The translations under genes and the position numbers were made by a program. Below are positions 48,465-57,938 of a stretch of 64,000 bases of DNA, piece after piece. This DNA is from Escherichia phage ECO340P2, in the sequence record OP172792; one strand, written 5' to 3'. The notes beneath the pieces are model-generated. The model was not told where the DNA came from and did not search any database. It worked only from the letters and a program-made list of their open reading frames with translations. Positions within the stretch are counted from its first letter, which is position 1. The number at the start of each line of letters is the position of its first letter.

Positions 48465-49259
48465 TTGAGCAAGTTGAACACACTTGATCAATATTACACT
48501 AACCCCGCTTATGCGGGGTTCTTATGTGATAAGATCAAAGAAATTTTTGGAGAGGAAGCTAACTACGTAGAACCATCTGCGGGAGAAGGAGCTTTCTCTT
48601 CTTGTTTTAAAAACATAACTTCTTTTGATATTGACCCTAAGTTTGAAGATTGTATTGAGGCAGATTTTTTAGCCCAATCTGTTGAGTCTGTTGGTAGTGT
48701 AACTGCTTTTGTCGGTAATCCTCCATTTGGAAAAAATGCTAGTCTTGCCATTAAATTCTTTAACCATTGTGCTGAAATGCTAGATAACGAAGGTGGTATT
48801 TGTTTTATCTTGCCTCGCACATTTCAAAAAATCTTTTTTGCACACAAACTAAATCCCCACATGCATCTTCTTTACGAAGAAGAATGTCCAAAAGGATCTT
48901 TTATTCTTCATGGAGAACCTTGGGATGTTCCTTGTGTATTCCAGATATGGATTAAACGCAACGAGAAGCGTTCTCCCGTTGTTTTAGGAGAAAATCGACT
49001 ATTTGTATTAGGCAACAGTAAAGACTACGACATAGCCGTTAGGAGAGCGGGAGCAAGTGCAGGTAAAGTGTTATCAGAAGAAGATTCTTTATCTGAAGCG
49101 TCTACCTATTTTTTAAAAGCCTTGACTTCTGATCTTAAAACGCGTATCATTGAGGCTTACCCGTTACTTAAAGCTGAAGCTAGTAAAACTGCGGGAGTAA
49201 GAAGTTTAAGTTTAAAAGAACTTCAGTGGGTTCTGGAGAACATTAGAAAGGAGGAATAG
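48465..49259 (+). CDS. DNA N6-adenine methyltransferase (orphan)
   Basis: QYYTNP, EPSAGEGAF (motif I), VGNPPFGK (motif IV); TTG start; no adjacent endonuclease. Confidence 0.7.
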   Translation: MSKLNTLDQYYTNPAYAGFLCDKIKEIFGEEANYVEPSAGEGAFSSCFKNITSFDIDPKFEDCIEADFLAQSVESVGSVTAFVGNPPFGKNASLAIKFFNHCAEMLDNEGGICFILPRTFQKIFFAHKLNPHMHLLYEEECPKGSFILHGEPWDVPCVFQIWIKRNEKRSPVVLGENRLFVLGNSKDYDIAVRRAGASAGKVLSEEDSLSEASTYFLKALTSDLKTRIIEAYPLLKAEASKTAGVRSLSLKELQWVLENIRKEE

Positions 49260-52200
49260 TGAGTAAGTTTACATGGGATATTGAAGCAAACGGATTGTTG
49301 AATAATGACACTATTGATTATTTGGCTAGTCCTTATCGTCTCAAAGACACATTTCAAATGCACTGTATTGTCTTAGAGAACCATGAAACAGGAGAAATAG
49401 TAGCTTTCCACGATGGCCCTAAATACATTTTTGATGGGCGTCCTTATGAAGAATCAGATGGTAAATACACGTATGTTCTTAAAGAGTATGTGGCGCAAGA
49501 TTACACACATTTTCAACTAAAAGATTTCCCAGACTTTATTAATCATGAAGGTTATTTTCAAGACAAGCCGGAATATCTGGTTGAAATGGCTGTGGCACAT
49601 AACGGTATCAACTACGACTGGTTGGCTACAAAACTGTTTTACGGATTGGATTACAGTGTTAAATATAATACATGGGGTAAAAGCAAGGTAAAACTTATTG
49701 ACTCCTTGATTTTGAGTAAAGTGTTGAACCCAGATCGAAAGATTGAGGGCAAATCAGGACATAGCTTGGCAGCACTTTCTCGAAAGGCAGGTGGTGATGT
49801 AAAAATAGATTTCCGTAAAGAGATTCCAGAAGAAGATCGATTTAAGACTTTTGCTGCGGATATGCTTTATTACTGTATCTATGACAACAAAGCCAATACG
49901 AGCGTATATAATTACCTTATGGAAGAATGGGGTGATTATGATAAATGGGAAGGTCCGTTTGAACTTGAACAACGTGTAGCAGACATTATTACACGCCAGG
50001 AACACCGTGGGTTTGCTTTTAACATGAAGCAAGCAGAAGAGAACCTTGCTTTTTTGGATGCCGAAATGGAGCGTCTTCGTTTACTCGTTGAGCCTATTTT
50101 GCCACCTAAGCCAGCAACAAAAGGTTATCTTAAGGCTTTTATCCCACCTAAGTTGCAAATTAAAAAGAACTTAGAACCAACTAACCATATGATCAATTTT
50201 GCTAAGAAACATGATGGTCATTTGGAAGAGAGAGATGGGGACTGGTGGTTAGTTATGTTGGGGAAAGAGTGGAAACTGCCAGTTGCAGCAGACGAACCTT
50301 TATGTGATCCTCATATCCCTGCAACATTGAATGATACAACCCATATTAAAAACTGGCTTGTAGGTTTAGGTTGGGTACCATCAGAATATAAAGATAAAGA
50401 CTTGACTCTTAAATCTGGCACCAAGATTAAAAAGAGTGAGGAAGAACTTCAGAAAGGTATTCGAGCTTACGTTGAGCAAACTCTATCTTCTAATTTTTGT
50501 CAGGATCGTTGTGATCACCTTGAGTGCACACCGGAAACCTTAGAAAGGAAAATTCAAGAGCGTATAGCAAAAGGTAAAGGTCGCGGTCTTAAAGTGTTGA
50601 CTAACCCATGTTTTACCAAAGGTCAGGAAAAAGAAATTTGTCCTAACCTGCAAGCTTTGGGTGAGAAATTTCCTTATGCTACACAGATTGTAGAATACTT
50701 AACGTATAAACATCGTAGGAACTCTATTTTAGGTGGTGGTGCTGATTGGGAAGAAGACGAAGAAGATCAAGAATACGATAAAGGTTTCTTAGCCGCAGTA
50801 AGGGCGGATGGTCGTATTCCTACCCCAGCCGCTACATGTGATGCTGCAACCTCTCGTATGAAGCATAGGTCTGTCGCTAATATTCCTCGTGTTACATCTT
50901 TGTTTGGATGGGAGATGCGTAACCTGTTTGGTGTGGAGGTTCCTAAATACTTCCAGATCGGCTACGACTTCGACTCTTTGGAAGCAAAAATTGAATCACA
51001 CTACTGTGTGCCGATGGATGCTCAAGCTTTGACTCGTAAAGGTTGGGTAGGATATCACGACCTGAAGGAAGGGGATGAGATTTTAGGGTACAATGCTGAA
51101 ACAGGTCTGAAAGAATGGACTAAAGTAAAAGGTAAGGTCTTCTATAAAAATAGTAAGACGTTTGAGATTAAAGGGAAATCACACACTTACCGTGCAACAG
51201 CAGATCACCGTTGGTATGTTAATACCCGTAGTAAAGGGAATACTTATGTGCCTAAAGTCAGAACAACTGCCGAGCTTTGCACAGGAGATAACATTATTTG
51301 TAATGCTCCATTTAATATGGAACAAGATCAGGTAAATAGTTTAACTTCTGTTCAACAAGGTAAATGGGATGTTCCGTGGGTAGAACGTGTAGTTAATATG
51401 TCTCATGCCGAGCGTGTAGCTTTCTTGGAAGGTTTCTTGATTGCAGATGGTTACTGGCACGAACATAAACAAAAACCTGTTTGGCGTTGGGCGCAGAACC
51501 CAGGTGAACTTTTTGAAGCAGCTTTAACTGCCTCGTACCTGGTGCATGGAGGCAATATCTCTGTAGCTTTCAATACAAAAGAGCAGAAAGTAAAAGTGGC
51601 AACATTGACTAACCGCTCTCACATTCCTGTTCAAAGTTTGACTATTGAAGAGTGGGGTGTAGAGGATGTTTGGTGTCCACAAACAGAACTTGGTACGTGG
51701 GTCATGCGTCAGAAAGACTGCATTACCATCACAGGAAACTGTTGGCGGTACGAGCCGGAGCCACACGAGTATTGTAACGCTCTGTTGTTAGAGAAACCTA
51801 ATGATGTTCACACAATGATGGCAAAACGTATCACTGAAACTATCGGACGTAAATTTGAACGTAGTCCTGCTAAATCTGTTAAGTATGGTATTACCTATGG
51901 TGCACAAGCCGACAAGGTTGCTAAAACAATTGGTAGCGATAAGTTTACAGGTCAATTAGTGTTTGATGCTTTCTGGGAAGCTGCATTCCCATTGGCGCGT
52001 CTTAAAGAACGTTTAAACGATTTCTGGGTTAAGACTGGTAAACAATATGTTTTGGGTATTGACGGTCGTAAGGTTCCTACTCGTTCTGCTCACGCGATTC
52101 TTAACTCTCTGTTCCAAAGTGGTGGGGTTATCTGTGCTAAACGTGCAATGGTTATTTATGACGACATGATCGAAGAAGAAGGACTAAGTGTTGACTTCTT

Positions 52201-52591
52201 TAAAGATGACTGGAAGAATAAAGACTTCGTGCAACAAATGATTGCATATCACGATGAAGCCCAGCTTGAAGTTTCTCGTAACCTTGTAGAATTTAAATGG
52301 TTTTCACCTGAATCATTAGGTTGGAAGAAAGTAGACGATCCTGAAGAACAAAAGAAAATTGATAAAGAATGCCTTGCTAAAGTTGAAGAATGGAAGCATA
52401 ATAAGGAAAAAGAGACGGGACAAATTTGGGCTAACATTCATGAATCTCCCAAAGGTGGATGGTTTACAGCCTATAGTCGGGCAGGTGAACTTGCTGCCTT
52501 AGCTGTTACTAAGGCTGGAGAATTTTACAATCTTAATGTTCAGCTTACTGCCGGATATGATGTGGGTAATTCTTGGGCGTCCTGTCACTGA
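49259..52591 (+). CDS. family A DNA polymerase with 3'-5' exonuclease domain, interrupted by putative intein
   Basis: Exo I FTWDIEANGL; motif A-like GYDFDSLEAKI; motif B-like RSPAKSVKYGITYGAQ; 245-aa insertion between them; GTG start. Confidence 0.75.
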   Translation: MSKFTWDIEANGLLNNDTIDYLASPYRLKDTFQMHCIVLENHETGEIVAFHDGPKYIFDGRPYEESDGKYTYVLKEYVAQDYTHFQLKDFPDFINHEGYFQDKPEYLVEMAVAHNGINYDWLATKLFYGLDYSVKYNTWGKSKVKLIDSLILSKVLNPDRKIEGKSGHSLAALSRKAGGDVKIDFRKEIPEEDRFKTFAADMLYYCIYDNKANTSVYNYLMEEWGDYDKWEGPFELEQRVADIITRQEHRGFAFNMKQAEENLAFLDAEMERLRLLVEPILPPKPATKGYLKAFIPPKLQIKKNLEPTNHMINFAKKHDGHLEERDGDWWLVMLGKEWKLPVAADEPLCDPHIPATLNDTTHIKNWLVGLGWVPSEYKDKDLTLKSGTKIKKSEEELQKGIRAYVEQTLSSNFCQDRCDHLECTPETLERKIQERIAKGKGRGLKVLTNPCFTKGQEKEICPNLQALGEKFPYATQIVEYLTYKHRRNSILGGGADWEEDEEDQEYDKGFLAAVRADGRIPTPAATCDAATSRMKHRSVANIPRVTSLFGWEMRNLFGVEVPKYFQIGYDFDSLEAKIESHYCVPMDAQALTRKGWVGYHDLKEGDEILGYNAETGLKEWTKVKGKVFYKNSKTFEIKGKSHTYRATADHRWYVNTRSKGNTYVPKVRTTAELCTGDNIICNAPFNMEQDQVNSLTSVQQGKWDVPWVERVVNMSHAERVAFLEGFLIADGYWHEHKQKPVWRWAQNPGELFEAALTASYLVHGGNISVAFNTKEQKVKVATLTNRSHIPVQSLTIEEWGVEDVWCPQTELGTWVMRQKDCITITGNCWRYEPEPHEYCNALLLEKPNDVHTMMAKRITETIGRKFERSPAKSVKYGITYGAQADKVAKTIGSDKFTGQLVFDAFWEAAFPLARLKERLNDFWVKTGKQYVLGIDGRKVPTRSAHAILNSLFQSGGVICAKRAMVIYDDMIEEEGLSVDFFKDDWKNKDFVQQMIAYHDEAQLEVSRNLVEFKWFSPESLGWKKVDDPEEQKKIDKECLAKVEEWKHNKEKETGQIWANIHESPKGGWFTAYSRAGELAALAVTKAGEFYNLNVQLTAGYDVGNSWASCH
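51005..51739 (+). mobile_element. putative intein (245 aa) with LAGLIDADG-like motif inside the polymerase
   Basis: begins with Cys after motif A, TADH block, LEGFLIADGYW, ends ..ITGN followed by Cys; removal restores normal A-to-B spacing. Confidence 0.5.
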
Positions 52592-52609
52592 TCTAACATA
52601 TTGTTTTAT

Positions 52610-52630
52610 AAGGGGCTTCTGCCCCTTTAT
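52610..52630 (+). terminator. intrinsic terminator GGGGCttctGCCCC + TTTAT
   Basis: GC stem, tetraloop. Confidence 0.6.
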
Positions 52631-52640
52631 AGGAGGAGAT

Positions 52641-52832
52641 ATGCATTACGATTTAGATTGTCTTGGTATGCCTTACCTACCAGATGAATTCGAAGGTGAA
52701 GAAGAACGTGAATGGGACGATGGGGATATCCGTTGTTGGTCTTGTGGTAAAGATATGTCTTATGAACAACATATGCACAATGATGGTTTCTGCATACATT
52801 GTTATAATGAAATTGATCTGGAGGAAGATTAA
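52641..52832 (+). CDS. small zinc-ribbon protein
   Basis: CWSCG...CIHC; trimmed to ATG 52641 after GGAGGAG. Confidence 0.5.
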   Translation: MHYDLDCLGMPYLPDEFEGEEEREWDDGDIRCWSCGKDMSYEQHMHNDGFCIHCYNEIDLEED

Positions 52833-52999
52833 TGGGAAATGGTATCATGATTTGCTATAAAATTGTGCGTATTGTCGGAGACGAAGTTACCACTCGGTAT
52901 TTTATGATAGAGTCTCAAGCCGATGAGGTTTACAATGACTGGCTTGAAAAAGGTGGATACGATTTTGTATCTAAAGAAACTTTCCGTTTAGAAGTATAA
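52832..52999 (+). CDS. hypothetical small protein (55 aa)
   Basis: hand-translated ORF with GGAGGAAG RBS. Confidence 0.45.
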   Translation: MGNGIMICYKIVRIVGDEVTTRYFMIESQADEVYNDWLEKGGYDFVSKETFRLEV

Positions 53000-53009
53000 G
53001 GAGAAAACA

Positions 53010-53228
53010 ATGCGTAAATTAGTGAGCTTTAATGTTTCAATTCTTGTTGATGAACAAAATGAAGATGTTATTAAAGGTCTTGCAAATAAGATTGCAGGTG
53101 GAATGACGGAAGCTGAAGTGTGGGAAGAATGTGCTCGACTTTATGAGGAAGGTGTTATTGAGGTCTTAGGGGATGAGATTAATATGGACGATGTTGTAAA
53201 AGTAACTGTGGAGCGTATCAATGACTAA
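53010..53228 (+). CDS. hypothetical small protein
   Basis: ORF with AAGGAG RBS. Confidence 0.5.
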   Translation: MRKLVSFNVSILVDEQNEDVIKGLANKIAGGMTEAEVWEECARLYEEGVIEVLGDEINMDDVVKVTVERIND

Positions 53229-53814
53229 ATCAAAACAAATCAATATTGCCAAAGAAATTCTTACCATATTAAAGATCGCTGATCCTAATTCTGTCTTGGC
53301 TGGCGGTGCTGTTCGTGATTGGCGTATTCTTGATATTGCTGGACGTGATCTGGATTTCTATACATCCCTTCCTGCACATCGGACTGAAGAACAAATACAA
53401 GGATTAATTGCATCTGCTTTAATGGGAACCAATATTCGTAAACTAGGAAACAAAGAGGCTTCTGACAATTATGAAGGTGTTACTGGTCTTAAACACGTTT
53501 TTGAGTTTGAACGTGATGGTCAGCTTTGCAACCTTATGATTATGGAACCAAGCGTAATGACAACCTTTCTAAATGAGTTCGATCTGTCCATCTGCCAGGC
53601 TGCATTTGATGGGAAGGACTGTTATTATTCTAAAGATTTTGAAACAACCTTGGAAACAGGGATCTGCTTCTTGCACAAAGATGTTAGAGAAGATGCCAAA
53701 CATGTTATTAAAATTGCTACACGTTTCCCATATCTTCGTTTTGTGAAAGAGGTTAAGGTTCCACGTCCACCTCAAGTAGATACCAGATTGGAAGAAGATG
53801 ATATTCCTTGGTAA
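53221..53814 (+). CDS. minimal nucleotidyltransferase of CCA-adding/poly(A) polymerase head-domain type
   Basis: LAGGAVRDWRILDIAGRDLDFY matches GGxVRD...D.D signature; only 197 aa. Confidence 0.5.
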   Translation: MTKSKQINIAKEILTILKIADPNSVLAGGAVRDWRILDIAGRDLDFYTSLPAHRTEEQIQGLIASALMGTNIRKLGNKEASDNYEGVTGLKHVFEFERDGQLCNLMIMEPSVMTTFLNEFDLSICQAAFDGKDCYYSKDFETTLETGICFLHKDVREDAKHVIKIATRFPYLRFVKEVKVPRPPQVDTRLEEDDIPW

Positions 53815-53821
53815 TTAAAGC

Positions 53822-53851
53822 TTGACAATATTAAACATTTTATGATAGGAT
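53822..53851 (+). promoter_or_regulatory. promoter TTGACA-N18-TAGGAT
   Basis: hexamers read directly; ATG of next gene about 9 nt after -10. Confidence 0.45.
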
Positions 53852-53859
53852 AGCATTCA

Positions 53860-54252
53860 ATGACTGAACGTTCTAAGATAGCTGTTGAAACTGTTTATGG
53901 AAACTATACCAGTTTGACACTAGTTGAGAAAAATGTTGTAGGTCTTGACAACTCTTTTTATTTTCAAATTTTGGTTATTCAAGGTGGAAACAAGAAGCTA
54001 ACTGCTCGTGTCGAAACATCTGAAATAATTGAAACCACTGTTACAAACAAAGAATTCATTTCACTGCAAGATACAATCCGAAACGTTATAGACGAAGAAG
54101 GCAAAGCTGCCACAATTAAACTCGGAGGTTTCCCAGTGCAAATAGTTCATTTTCCTAATGGTGAAATTGGAGTTGGAATAGGTAAAGGTAAATACCTGTT
54201 AGAGCAAGATGATATGGAAAGACTCCGCTCTTTCTGTGCAAAATTAATGTAA
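53860..54252 (+). CDS. hypothetical protein
   Basis: ORF; no obvious RBS. Confidence 0.5.
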   Translation: MTERSKIAVETVYGNYTSLTLVEKNVVGLDNSFYFQILVIQGGNKKLTARVETSEIIETTVTNKEFISLQDTIRNVIDEEGKAATIKLGGFPVQIVHFPNGEIGVGIGKGKYLLEQDDMERLRSFCAKLM

Positions 54253-54268
54253 TGTAGAGGAGATAATA

Positions 54269-55201
54269 ATGTCCGTAATTAATACTGAAACTGATCGTAA
54301 AGGCAAAACCGTAACTTATGCAACTGGTATCGTAGACTACGTTAAACTGGATAAATTCGCTGAACCTAAAACTTTCCATTGGGAAGGAAAAACGATTGTT
54401 TCAACTCACCGAGCTTCTCTTGTTCTGAAAGAGAAAGGTGCTAAACCAGATGAGAAAGGTGTTTGGATTTCTCTTGGTGACATTGAACTGAAAGAAGGTT
54501 ATGAAAACCTGCAAGTCAAAGAAGGTGATAATTGGATCACTATTGAAAAAGGTGTAGAAGTAAGTATTGATATTGATCGCGTTGATAATAAAGGCGGTAA
54601 AACTTACTACAATACTAAAAAATCTCGTATTACAGTATTGTCTACCGAGGGTGTTCAGAAGTCTAACAAATCTTCTGGCAATAAAGGTTCCAACGATGCT
54701 GCTCCTAAGCAATCCTATAAAAAACGTGATACTGTAGGTCTGGAAACTGGTCACGCAGTAAATGGTGCACTGGAACTGATTCGTAATGGTGTTAAAGGCG
54801 ATGCTTTCGATATCGCTGGGGTTGTTCAATCTGCAACTGTCACGCTGAAATCGGAAATTGCTGAATCTCGTGGCGTTGATATTAATGATTATGATCTTGG
54901 GGCATCTGTTGGTCACGCTATCCTCAATGCTTGTAAAGACCATACCATTAAGACTGTATCTGTAGAAGATTTGATTGACTCTGCTCGTAAAGTTCTAGCT
55001 TTGTCTGATAAAGTTGCTGCTGCCATTCGTGGTTCCGTAGAACAACCTAAGAAAGAAGAGAAGAAAGAAGTTAAAAAGCCTGAACCACAACCAGAACCAA
55101 CTCCAAGCAATCAAGAAGAACCTCCAATGGACTTCGATGATGATATTCCATTTGCTCCTATTGGACTGCAATATGGTCGAAACTTCCTGCATTGCTTCTA
55201 A
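54269..55201 (+). CDS. SSB-like protein with acidic DDDIPF motif
   Basis: C-terminal region PMDFDDDIPF resembles SSB acidic tail, followed by 15 more residues. Confidence 0.45.
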   Translation: MSVINTETDRKGKTVTYATGIVDYVKLDKFAEPKTFHWEGKTIVSTHRASLVLKEKGAKPDEKGVWISLGDIELKEGYENLQVKEGDNWITIEKGVEVSIDIDRVDNKGGKTYYNTKKSRITVLSTEGVQKSNKSSGNKGSNDAAPKQSYKKRDTVGLETGHAVNGALELIRNGVKGDAFDIAGVVQSATVTLKSEIAESRGVDINDYDLGASVGHAILNACKDHTIKTVSVEDLIDSARKVLALSDKVAAAIRGSVEQPKKEEKKEVKKPEPQPEPTPSNQEEPPMDFDDDIPFAPIGLQYGRNFLHCF

Positions 55202-55235
55202 GGTTTGTTTCAAGTGCGTGAGGTTGAATGCTGAA

Positions 55236-55267
55236 TAAAAGAAAGGAGCCAAATGGCTCCTTTTCTT
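55236..55267. terminator. bidirectional terminator GGAGCCaaatGGCTCC between convergent operons
   Basis: 6-bp stem with T-runs on both strands. Confidence 0.7.
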
Positions 55268-57938
55268 ATTTATAACCCGAAGGAATATTATTATAATCAG
55301 AAAGTTTTGTGCAATACCTGAATAGGTAACTATTAGCTACTCCGCCTAATGTATTTGTTAATGTTGTTCCTGTTCCTGTAAGATTTGTGCATCCACTAAA
55401 GAAAGAAGATAATGCTCCACGTTTACCACAAACAGTTAACCCTGGGTTGTCATTAAAGATTTTATTAAAATCTGTAAGTGCTAAACAACCTTGGAATGTA
55501 GCTGTTAAAGAGGTCACTTTCGTTGGAATATTATCAAACATTCCTGCTGGAACTTCTGCAAGAGAGGTGCAATCTTTAAAGGTGTAAGAATATCTTGTAA
55601 CTTTTGATAGATTCTTAAATAAATCTGAAGGAATAGATGTTAAAGATGTACAACCTTCAAACGTGCTTGACATTGTTGTCATTGAAGGAAATAAAGCATC
55701 ACTGAATAATCCTTCAGGGATAGCTGTCAAACTTGTGCAGCCAGAGAAGATACCGCTTATAGATGTTCCGGTGTAAGATGTGTTACTAAAACAATCAGAA
55801 GTTATTCGTCTTAAGTTAGCACAACCTTTTAAGAATTGTGAGGCTGGGCTTGTAGAATAACCAATTCTGTTGCCGCCCCATAATTCTAAAAGATTTGGAT
55901 TTGCTTCCATAGACACATCAACACTATTCACTACTGAAGCACTTGCAAATTCAATAGCCAGTCTATATTCTCCTGCTGGATAACTATCCACTGTAGAGAA
56001 AGCTTTATTTCTAAATATTACTTTATTTGAAGGTATTACAACGTCATCCACTTTAACTACAAAGTTAGCTGGTGTGACAGTACCCGATAAAATTGGGAAC
56101 GTAATTGCCCCATCTGCCGAGTGGTTGAAATATCCGTTTAGAACCGTTAAACTACTACTCGGAGATGGAGCTAACTCCTTTCCCGCAACAGCATTCACCG
56201 TTAAATAAGAACTATCGGAAGCGGTAACAACACCTTGATACGTAGCTGTGCAACCAATCCTACAACCACCATCACCAACACCAGTTATTACACCAGTTGT
56301 AGGATCTACTGTAGCAACACTAGAATCTGTAGTTGTATATTCAACAACCATGCCAGGTAAGCTTGCTGCCCCTGTTGGCGTTATTTCTGCTACCATTGTT
56401 TGTGTTGTTCCTACATCCATCGCAGATAAGCTAGGGGTGTAAACACTCAATGTTGAAGCATATCCTCCAGAGGTATCTGATAAAGTTGTTCCTTCAGCGT
56501 TTAAGGCTGTCATACCTGCATCAAAACCACCTTCTGCATGGAAAGTCATTAAACCAGTAGATGATATTGTCATGTTTGCAGGGGCAGAAGAAGTGTATTT
56601 AATATTGAAAAGTTTACCTCCTTCTGGGCTAACAGAATGTGTCAACTGTTTAGTTCCACCTACAATACAAACTCCTAAAGAATCTGTAGTTAAGCTAGTT
56701 GCCAGCACATCTCCCGTAATCACAGAGCTTGCTATCGGTGTGAATTTATTATAATTTAGACCACTGTTGAACAGATACGAGGCTTTCCCATCTTTCCAAA
56801 TACCGGAATAATACATATCCCCGTTATAAACGAAAAAGGTTCCTTGATAACCTAATTGGTTAGTAATATCCATATTCAGCGTATGAACGCTTGTGAGCTT
56901 GTTTATATCCCAAGAACCCACTCCTTCAGGTTTAACTGGTTTTCCCACTTGGAGTGGATCTCCGCTCGCAGAATCATACCCCAAACCTAAGTTTGCAGTG
57001 TAGTTCTTACCAATAGCCCACAAGGAATTGTTGATCCCAACGAAAAAAGAGTGGCGGCTTGGTGGAAATTTCCATGTTGAGAAACCTGCTGCAAAGGTAT
57101 CCAGTTTAGTGTAGGTTGTTTCTGTATTAGACCTGACATATAAGTAGTTTACCGTGCCCGTACCACCAGAGGTGTCTCCTACAACTATTGTCTGGGAAAC
57201 TGTATTGATGTAATCTTTGACATACACTGTTTCAGTAGTGGATATCGTGGCATTGACAAAAGCGGTTGTTGTGTTATTATTACCTGCTAAACCTTTACTA
57301 GCTCCACAAACACGCAAGGTTCCCACATTGTTGACATAAGAGCATTGGTTGTAACCTGCATCAAAAGCAACTGCTGAACTTGTTATCTGACGAGGAGTAG
57401 AAACTTCGTTAGTAGTGCTTGCACCTAAACTACCTACTGTGTTTTGACCCGATCCATAAAGAACACCGCTATTCATTAACCAGAGAGTATTGTTATACCC
57501 TCCTTTAACCTCTTTAAGATTGGCTAAAGAAATAGTCCCTGTTATTACAGATGGAAAGCTGGTCCAAGTAGTTACACATGCATCCGTACCACCTGCTGCT
57601 ATAGATCCTACCAACCCTGCTGTCAATCCTGAATATTGCCATCCCCCACTGTTAGTTTTAATAACAAAACAACGATCTGCGGTAAACACATCCGCTACTA
57701 CAGTAGAAGCTAAGTGGAAATTATTGAATCGTGCACTACGAGTTCCATCTGCAATCTCACCAAAGAGGTTTGCGCCTTGAGTAAACAATCTACCATCATT
57801 AAGCAAAATTGCTAAACTGTTGTTAGAATTACCAGCGTTATCTGGGTAATCTAAAGTGATTACTTTTTTAACAATACCTGCTGGCAGAGGAACGACACCA
57901 GTGCTGGTCATAATAGTAAATATTGGAATTGGAAACAT
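55266..57938 (-). CDS. tail fibre / receptor-binding protein with C-terminal BspA-type leucine-rich repeats
   Basis: repeats F.GCTSLT.IP..LF near C-terminus; Gly/Thr/Ser-rich body. Confidence 0.5.
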   Translation of the reverse strand: MFPIPIFTIMTSTGVVPLPAGIVKKVITLDYPDNAGNSNNSLAILLNDGRLFTQGANLFGEIADGTRSARFNNFHLASTVVADVFTADRCFVIKTNSGGWQYSGLTAGLVGSIAAGGTDACVTTWTSFPSVITGTISLANLKEVKGGYNNTLWLMNSGVLYGSGQNTVGSLGASTTNEVSTPRQITSSAVAFDAGYNQCSYVNNVGTLRVCGASKGLAGNNNTTTAFVNATISTTETVYVKDYINTVSQTIVVGDTSGGTGTVNYLYVRSNTETTYTKLDTFAAGFSTWKFPPSRHSFFVGINNSLWAIGKNYTANLGLGYDSASGDPLQVGKPVKPEGVGSWDINKLTSVHTLNMDITNQLGYQGTFFVYNGDMYYSGIWKDGKASYLFNSGLNYNKFTPIASSVITGDVLATSLTTDSLGVCIVGGTKQLTHSVSPEGGKLFNIKYTSSAPANMTISSTGLMTFHAEGGFDAGMTALNAEGTTLSDTSGGYASTLSVYTPSLSAMDVGTTQTMVAEITPTGAASLPGMVVEYTTTDSSVATVDPTTGVITGVGDGGCRIGCTATYQGVVTASDSSYLTVNAVAGKELAPSPSSSLTVLNGYFNHSADGAITFPILSGTVTPANFVVKVDDVVIPSNKVIFRNKAFSTVDSYPAGEYRLAIEFASASVVNSVDVSMEANPNLLELWGGNRIGYSTSPASQFLKGCANLRRITSDCFSNTSYTGTSISGIFSGCTSLTAIPEGLFSDALFPSMTTMSSTFEGCTSLTSIPSDLFKNLSKVTRYSYTFKDCTSLAEVPAGMFDNIPTKVTSLTATFQGCLALTDFNKIFNDNPGLTVCGKRGALSSFFSGCTNLTGTGTTLTNTLGGVANSYLFRYCTKLSDYNNIPSGYK

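Follow-up and report, generated by a model that had tools for sequence, protein, structure and literature searches.

Introduction

Gabija anti-defence 2 (Gad2), the nearest characterized relative of the protein described here, is a predicted nucleotidyltransferase (NTase) of 400 aa. Knockout of Gad2 in phage SPbetaL7 turns the phage Gabija-sensitive, the SPbetaL7 protein is toxic, and a homolog encoded by a prophage of Brevibacillus laterosporus abolishes Gabija defence when co-expressed (bioRxiv 10.1101/2023.05.01.538930). Here, a stretch of 64,000 nucleotides from Escherichia phage ECO340P2 (sequence record OP172792), referred to below as the window, was analysed. This Phapecoctavirus segment (phAPEC8-like, Stephanstirmvirinae) contains an open reading frame (ORF) of 197 aa, at positions 53221-53814, whose product is very probably a Gad2-related NTase, as judged from profile comparisons.

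The region 52500-55300 is matched by about 65 coliphage records at 97-99% identity. The gene is already annotated in many records, and its kind is already known (Gad2, PF26128). The phAPEC8 protein, 100% identical to the ORF product, is annotated as “putative tRNA nucleotidyl transferase/poly(A) polymerase”, while its RefSeq name is “nucleotidyltransferase” only. A first-pass annotation of the window, made from the letters alone, had also proposed a minimal CCA-adding/poly(A) polymerase-type enzyme. The ORF represents a separate, short variant that is set apart by an invariant RDW signature and possibly by a tail of the kind found at the tip of the single-stranded DNA-binding protein (SSB).

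Several other small NTases are encoded by phages. Gp22 of the Klebsiella phage fHe-Kpn01, which is toxic in E. coli by experiment (PMC7291057), resembles the ORF product in being a stand-alone head-type NTase of about 180 aa, whose gene directly follows the DNA polymerase gene and overlaps its stop. The gp22 protein of the P. putida phage Emajogi is toxic when strongly induced; gp23, the neighbouring gene number, is a DNA primase/helicase, and some related phages have homologs of gp22 that bear a Gad2 family annotation. The MNT-like phage NTases described by Ho et al. (phages BCP1 and Av05) make competitor cyclic dinucleotides that inhibit TIR-STING (bioRxiv 10.1101/2022.06.09.495361). Like the ORF product, they are small phage proteins of the pol-beta superfamily, and theirs is a use in counter-defence.

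A short NTase family related to Gad2

A profile of close homologs of the ORF product retrieved 1,044 clusters (50% identity) at E<=1e-3 from 1.84 billion representatives, nearly all of them stand-alone proteins of 170-230 aa. An alignment of 187 family sequences served for the family profile and for all conservation counts given below. The Gad2 profile was built from nine sequences, namely the verified B. laterosporus protein and eight homologs from Supplementary Table 10 (bioRxiv 10.1101/2023.05.01.538930). The reference set of class II CCA-adding enzymes and poly(A) polymerases also held nine, E. coli Cca and PcnB together with seven phage or archaeal-virus enzymes, one of which is only 250 aa long. 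A protein search with the Cca head gave near-identical enterobacterial Cca only, and Cca relatives sought in viral contigs returned none; the diversity of this set was drawn from phage records.

With hhalign, the family aligns with Gad2 over 118 columns (97.3%, E=1.9e-11; ORF residues 19-154, Gad2 residues 22-142), with the class II set over 26 columns (81%, E=1.2e-5), and Gad2 aligns with the class II set over 169 columns (68%, E=4.7e-5). A Gad2 hidden Markov model (HMM) detects 29 family members at E<1e-3 (nominal database of 1e6), the best at 7.6e-10, and the family HMM matches verified Gad2 at 6.6e-4 versus 0.14 for the best class II protein. Intermediates such as P0016 and P0059 reach the clade of the ORF at E ~1e-43 and Gad2 at 1e-7 to 1e-9. 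Pfam PF26128 “Gad2” stands in precomputed tables for about 16 of 58 relatives, including P0009, which is 60% identical to the ORF product; for P0016, the PF26128 match was unmarked (E<=1e-5) in the context look-up. Hence, on profile evidence, the family is a distant sister of the Gad2 NTase domain.

The two families share a phage-encoded pol-beta NTase domain with AGG...D.D.Y, a Gln at the strand of the third carboxylate and an FD.[ST].C motif. Toxicity on expression is likewise common to Gad2 and related mini-NTases. They differ in that verified Gad2 proteins have 394-400 aa, comprising the NTase and a C-terminal domain which the 197-aa ORF product lacks, and in that Gad2 has ITS at the site of the invariant RDW of the family. 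Moreover, the gene for Gad2 belongs to a locus of temperate (SPbeta-like) Bacillus phages that is devoted to anti-defence, whereas the ORF lies in the replication block of a virulent coliphage. Some Gad2 homologs are single-domain proteins of about 214-228 aa, and some Gad2 homologs end in P-[IW]-F. The presence of 214- and 228-aa homologs in the authors’ list suggests that the Gad2 family may not be defined by the second domain.

Some family members (P0111, P0120, P0139 and P0171; 310-400 aa) carry N-terminal extensions of 100-210 aa, and Pfam scans of ten longer fusion proteins of the family for partner domains gave no match. P0120, at 400 aa, was considered as a Gad2 and rejected, as its N-terminal fusion is a different one, found in phages of the Vibrio and Aeromonas types. 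The C-terminus of P0171 is an acidic tail, ...FSFSDDDF.

The position of the other mini-NTases was also examined. Gp22 matches the family profile over 107 columns at E=8.8e-5; it is closer to class II (92.8%) than to the family (65%, motif A only), and by these alignments the Gp22 family is separate from that of the ORF.

Fold and active site

The AlphaFold2 model of the ORF product (predicted local distance difference test, pLDDT, 87.7) matches class II CCA-adding enzymes and poly(A) polymerases over the head and the first neck helix only. Structural alignments cover just the N-terminal part of the class II targets (TMt 0.25-0.30), and the model ends after one neck helix (residues 160-168) and a short strand. 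These results bear out two proposals of the first-pass annotation, a stand-alone head domain, here a head-type pol-beta NTase of class II structural lineage, and the absence of body domains. At the sequence level, phmmer of the ORF product against PDB sequences gave only noise, and the best match of the family profile there (E=0.002) is confined to motif A. PDB 2la3 (Streptococcus pneumoniae NP_344798.1), a bacterial stand-alone “CCA-adding enzyme head domain” of 191 aa, has 14% identity to the ORF product and is picked up neither by the family profile nor by the Gad2 sequences, which detect no solved structure. NCBIfam and PADLOC scans of the ORF found nothing.

The signature on which the first-pass annotation had relied is present, as GGAVRD at residues 28-33 and DLD at residues 43-45 (G28-G29-A-V-R32-D33 ... 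D43-L-D45). Both catalytic aspartates, the loss of which, like the lack of an NTase-fold match, would have spoken against that annotation, are found in all 187 sequences. G28 and G29 are conserved in 186 of them, followed by W34 (185), R32 (181) and D33 (170). Further along the protein, tyrosine is retained at positions 84 (183/187) and 47 (164, plus 20 with Phe), and the FDLSIC segment conserves F120 (166), S123 (128) and C125 (150, plus 32 with Ser). Near the end of the fold, K164 occurs in 183, F169 in 166 and P170 in 153 of the sequences.

The strand which by Kuchta-type patterns would bring the third carboxylate is less orthodox. The position of N104 is Gln in 145, Asn in 35 and acidic in 5 of the 187 sequences, and Gad2 has Gln there (“iQlI”). 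This sets both apart from Gp22, one of the similar Autographiviridae mini-NTases called “tRNA nucleotidyltransferase”, which keeps an Asp. On the neighbouring strand, E95 is acidic in 131 of the 187 sequences (70%). A working metal site is argued for because the DxD pair is absolutely conserved across very divergent sequences, and the protein is probably an active enzyme, as far as conservation can tell.

Comparison with CCA-adding enzymes and poly(A) polymerases

Class II enzymes such as E. coli Cca and PcnB (PDB 1miv and 3aql) are about 350-470 aa in length, and the ORF product, at half their size, lacks the full neck and the body and tail domains. Its motif A (GGxVRD then DxD) aligns to that of Cca and PcnB and is the sole stretch that aligns significantly to either of them or to Pfam PolyA_pol. 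The search with PolyA_pol (PF01743), which the first-pass annotation had proposed as a check, gave a match (E=0.07) that, at 13.9 bits, falls below the cut-off of 23 and is restricted to residues 26-65 and to profile positions 3-41 of 126; homologs of the ORF product score 13-21 bits.

Motif B of class II enzymes reads the ribose and the triphosphate, while the Asp and Arg of motif D form the amino-acid template choosing CTP and ATP. Motif B ([RK][RK]D[FLIVM][TS][IVLM]N) and motif D ([ED]D..R..R..RF) are each present in 9/9 class II references and in 0/187 family members. The ORF segment aligned to motif B is NEFDLSIC, in which x-Phe replaces the Arg-Arg of RRD, and in the presumed region of motif D, in place of EDxxR, the family conserves H161, K164, F169 and P170. 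Within the alignment of Gad2 with class II, FDFTVCMG pairs with RRDLTINA of Cca and Gad2 YP--VVSALRVQKY pairs with EDPLRVLRVARF; the first pairing bridges FDLSIC of the ORF product to motif B, and by way of the Gad2-Cca alignment the region 160-170 would correspond to motif D. As hhalign of the family with E. coli Cca or PcnB covers motif A only (24-44 columns), these by-eye matches from motif B to D are carried by the Gad2 bridge alone. Isoelectric points do not separate substrate types, class II heads being equally acidic.

With motifs B and D and the tRNA-holding body and tail all absent, one would not expect the known mechanism of CCA synthesis to operate. Similarly, because the ribose- and base-reading elements and the tRNA-binding domains have been lost, the substrate choice of the family must differ from that of CCA-adding enzymes and poly(A) polymerases. 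The ORF product is probably not a CCA-adding enzyme.

Relation to tRNA and RNA repair

The first-pass annotation had suggested that the enzyme could repair tRNA 3′ ends or tail RNAs, and that tRNA or RNA ligase genes be looked for elsewhere in the genome. No tRNA gene was found in the window. Both kinds of gene do occur in the close relative anhysbys, whose complete genome has 10 tRNA genes and a putative RNA ligase, adjoined by a phosphoesterase (gp219/gp220), and no full-length Cca; related rV5-like phages carry Cca. These genes, together with a fold lineage of the class II type and a motif A, GGAVRD...DLD, in its class II form, are what a minimal CCA-adding/poly(A)-type enzyme mending nuclease-damaged tRNA 3′ ends or tailing RNAs, possibly with the phage RNA ligase, would lead one to expect.

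Short RNA-repair NTases do exist. In the Arthrobacter phage Talia1610 (L019, 892-1644), a truncated class II “tRNA nucleotidyltransferase” of 250 aa is encoded a short way 3′ of a polynucleotide kinase gene, from which a single small ORF separates it. This enzyme keeps motifs B and D and is the picture of a truly minimal phage tRNA-repair NTase, in contrast to the ORF product.

Most of the evidence runs the other way. Motifs B and D, present in every class II reference including the 250-aa enzyme, are missing throughout the family, as are the tRNA-binding body and tail domains, and the PolyA_pol match stays below threshold. In anhysbys, all 10 tRNA genes encode their own CCA, and CCA ends are already repaired by the host Cca. 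The NTase gene lies in the replication block, about 100 kb away from the part of this relative’s genome that holds the tRNA and RNA-ligase genes. Among phages carrying such proteins, Vibrio phage 1.253.O (a family member) and fHe-Kpn01 (the related Gp22) have no tRNA gene. In the family contexts inspected, the neighbours are genes of replication and nucleotide metabolism, not of RNA repair, and the nearest characterized relative is Gad2. A role in tRNA repair or RNA tailing is accordingly improbable, and the proposal of the first-pass annotation on this point is not supported.

A C-terminal tail resembling the tip of SSB

The last 19 residues of the ORF product are predicted to be flexible, and pLDDT over the last 20 drops to 64, then 51. 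This segment ends in DDIPW. The SSB tip is a docking peptide of many replication and repair proteins; the C-terminus of E. coli SSB is PPMDFDDDIPF, and the SSB-like protein of phage anhysbys ends identically. The ORF product has EEDDIPW where the canonical tip reads DDDIPF, with Trp standing in place of Phe. In the window, such a motif near the C-terminus is restricted to the NTase ORF and the SSB-like ORF. DDIPW or FPW is found in the whole phAPEC8-like clade, with IPY, IPF and VPW as recurrent variants. Of the 187 family members, 16 have a C-terminal hP[FWY] preceded by an acidic stretch, and in 3 of the 7 Gad2 homologs whose C-termini are complete the last residues are P-[IW]-F. From this resemblance we infer that the tail may recruit the enzyme to partners of the SSB tip or compete for them.

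It could also be argued that the protein is a non-catalytic decoy, whose tail alone titrates host binders of the SSB tail. The invariance of the tail in the phAPEC8-like clade and the Asn or Gln at the third-carboxylate position are consistent with such a decoy. However, D43, D45, G28/G29, R32 and W34 are near-invariant in 187 diverse sequences although 171 of these have no tail, a pattern indicating that it is the active site, rather than the tail, that is under selection. The decoy is thus most improbable.

The SSB-like gene of the window, two genes 3′ of the NTase ORF, extends past MDFDDDIPF as ...APIGLQYGRNFLHCF*. Compared with anhysbys, the gene is one base short and no longer has the TGA stop. 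The extended variant is common to at least 6 other phapecoctaviruses, and an annotated “endonuclease” gene lies at the extension site or next to it in Mt1B1_P17, nieznany and PsgM04F, which suggests a homing-endonuclease hot spot burying the SSB tip. In the SSB-like protein, only residues ~250-295 (linker and tail) match SSB PHROGs, the body belonging to phrog_4477, to which no function is assigned; it may thus be mainly because of the tail that relatives are annotated as SSB.

Genomic neighbourhood

In the window, the NTase ORF is the last gene of a same-strand block comprising a primase-helicase, a Dam-like methylase, DNA polymerase I and three small ORFs (Table 1). A GGAG lies 7 nt 5′ of its start, and the overlap with the preceding 72-aa ORF makes translational coupling of the two likely. 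On the 3′ side, a 130-aa ORF with no function assigned separates it from the SSB-like gene. The arrangement from polA to the NTase recurs in another locus (L010), again after primase-helicase and polA. In Vibrio phage 1.253.O, the family member overlaps the end of a 5′-3′ exonuclease gene. Elsewhere in the family, the neighbours include genes for ribonucleotide reductase, ThyX, glutaredoxin, thymidine kinase, 5′-nucleotidase, RNase H and RdgC; the family also occurs near a UvrD-type helicase.

Table 1. Positions in the window of the NTase ORF, its segments and the neighbouring genes
Feature	Position	Strand	Description
DNA polymerase I (family A) gene	49259..52591	+	Heads the same-strand block that runs via three small ORFs to the NTase ORF
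Upstream ORF	53010..53228	+	72 aa, phrog_25475 (no function assigned); stop overlaps the NTase start by 8 nt
NTase ORF	53221..53814	+	197 aa; minimal pol-beta-fold NTase, class II-type head and first neck helix, Gad2-like family
Motif A (LAGGAVRDW...DLDFY), residues 26-47	53296..53361	+	Glycine turn and two predicted metal-binding aspartates, D43 and D45
N104, predicted strand 101-108	53530..53532	+	Aligns with the D of the Gp22 EIDVLF strand (third carboxylate by Kuchta-type patterns)
FDLSIC, residues 120-125	53578..53595	+	Counterpart of Gad2 FDFTVC and, via Gad2, of class II motif B RRDFTIN minus both arginines
Helix 160-168 and FP turn (H161, K164, R168, F169, P170)	53701..53730	+	Class II neck stub, in the presumed region of class II motif D
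C-terminal linker and acidic tip, ...RLEEDDIPW-COOH	53755..53811 (tip 53791-53811)	+	Resembles the SSB C-terminal tip
SSB-like gene	54269..55201	+	Two genes 3′ of the NTase ORF; tip MDFDDDIPF (DDDIPF 55136-55153) followed by 15 extra codons

Additional features of the region can be mentioned. At 53822-53851 (+), after the NTase stop and before the gene that follows, there is a TTGACA-18-TAGGAT with an upstream TG; it was rejected as a promoter, since promoter-like sites are no more numerous in the region than in shuffled sequence. The DNA polymerase I ORF (1110 aa) contains an apparent intein with a LAGLIDADG-type endonuclease (CVPMDAQ...LEGFLIADGYW...ITITGN/C), and the anhysbys ORF is equally long. 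In anhysbys, four consecutive annotated glycosyltransferase genes (L001, 1498-4642; syntenic with the window upstream of the primase-helicase) are followed by the primase-helicase and Dam-like N6-adenine methyltransferase genes, just upstream of the replication block, a run that is possibly a module for the modification of DNA or surface sugars. A second anhysbys locus (L005, 64001-113000) encodes the Sir2-like protein gp163 and gp211, a MazG-like nucleotide pyrophosphohydrolase, possibly of the Atd1 type reported in Phapecoctavirus (bioRxiv 10.1101/2022.06.09.495361).

Possible functions of the NTase

Taken together, the data are best read as pointing to a Gad2-like NTase that is active, is produced along with the replication genes and serves in counter-defence; for this overall reading we see nearly an even chance. 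A role in counter-defence or host interference, argued by analogy, comes just as close to an even chance, while Gabija specifically as the target is possible but on balance doubtful. The toxicity of related mini-NTases and of the SPbetaL7 Gad2 points, again by analogy, to a general cellular substrate.

Several observations weigh against this interpretation. The ORF product alone scores 8.2 bits against the nine-sequence Gad2 HMM, which is not significant, and its own 90% cluster, P0001, has no PF26128 match on record; the link to Gad2 is consequently one of families and profiles, and transitive. The canonical third carboxylate is Asn or Gln, so that activity is not guaranteed. In Gad2, the C-terminal domain of ~200 aa that is absent here could carry the specificity for Gabija, and any tie of the short family to Gabija or another defence system is by homology, not by experiment. 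The mechanism of Gad2 was still called not elucidated in February 2026 (PMC12904381), hence to say that the protein works like Gad2 says little about its chemistry. Within the family, the tail is confined to the 16 members mentioned above, with W replacing F, and several members lie among small ORFs with no function assigned and not among replication genes. Finally, the tRNAs, RNA ligase and phosphoesterase of anhysbys mean that the enzyme may have a role on RNA.

If the enzyme is active, its chemistry would be a two-metal nucleotidyl transfer from a ribonucleoside or deoxyribonucleoside triphosphate (NTP or dNTP) onto an acceptor hydroxyl, the nucleotide being held by the GG turn, R32 and D43/D45. 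A DNA end or the replication fork as the substrate is rather unlikely. In a more elaborate scheme, the flexible acidic DDIPW tail of the phAPEC8-like clade would mimic the SSB tip DDDIPF and dock the enzyme onto proteins that read the SSB tail at replication forks or single-stranded DNA. Once docked, the enzyme would act on the 3′ end of a DNA or on a protein associated with the fork, modifying it in such a way that defences of the Gabija type, monitoring DNA ends or repair, do not fire. Recent work has indicated that Gabija acts at DNA ends without RecBCD activity. The proposal that short Gad2-like NTases are fork-targeted in this manner, with DDIPW hijacking the docking sites of the SSB tail and the head nucleotidylating a DNA 3′ end or an SSB partner, thereby blinding Gabija-like defences, is speculative and, in our estimate, unlikely.

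A replication accessory without any defence role would account for the same location and tail. For example, a terminal transferase recruited by the SSB-like tail might extend or cap 3′ ends of the phage DNA, or primers, in the course of replication, recombination or packaging. Against this, the family is patchy in related phages and often sits among small accessory ORFs, a distribution that one would expect of dispensable genes in an arms race rather than of core replication functions. Furthermore, the closest characterized homolog is an anti-defence factor and related mini-NTases are toxic to the host. We give such an accessory function a small chance.

Alternatively, the product could be a small molecule, either an oligonucleotide, linear or cyclic, or a nucleotide in modified form, which rivals a host immune signal or keeps a GajA-like nucleotide-sensing nuclease off. 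Synthesis of a nucleotide signal had been the third option of the first-pass annotation, and the results speak neither for nor against it. GajA has been reported as inhibited by nucleotides. The loss of RNA-binding domains and of the base-templating motif fits a free nucleotide as acceptor, and genes of nucleotide metabolism are found among many of the neighbours. There is also the precedent, from a different family, of the MNT-like phage NTases and their TIR-STING-inhibiting cyclic dinucleotides (bioRxiv 10.1101/2022.06.09.495361). The ORF itself was rejected as an NTase of the type of Ho et al., GS-x-AY[GAN]T-x4-SDxD and NP-x-h2-[DE] being absent and a loose regular expression finding nothing. 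Those enzymes form a different clade, related to MNT and KNT, and the ORF product shows neither their signature nor the relationship. A small-molecule product is on the whole not likely.

Implications

The label “tRNA nucleotidyl transferase/poly(A) polymerase”, which from the phAPEC8 annotation onward is now in dozens of phage genomes, is probably wrong as to function. The family belongs instead with Gad2, one of few anti-Gabija factors. Should the anti-defence role fail, the result would still be a useful correction of annotation, otherwise ordinary. The single-domain version from an E. coli phage, whose catalytic residues are invariant and whose tail may be a docking peptide of the SSB type, offers a compact system for asking what a Gad2-type enzyme transfers, and onto what. 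If the fork-targeted proposal is true, this coliphage protein of 197 aa would be a minimal and genetically tractable model which could reveal the mechanism of Gad2.

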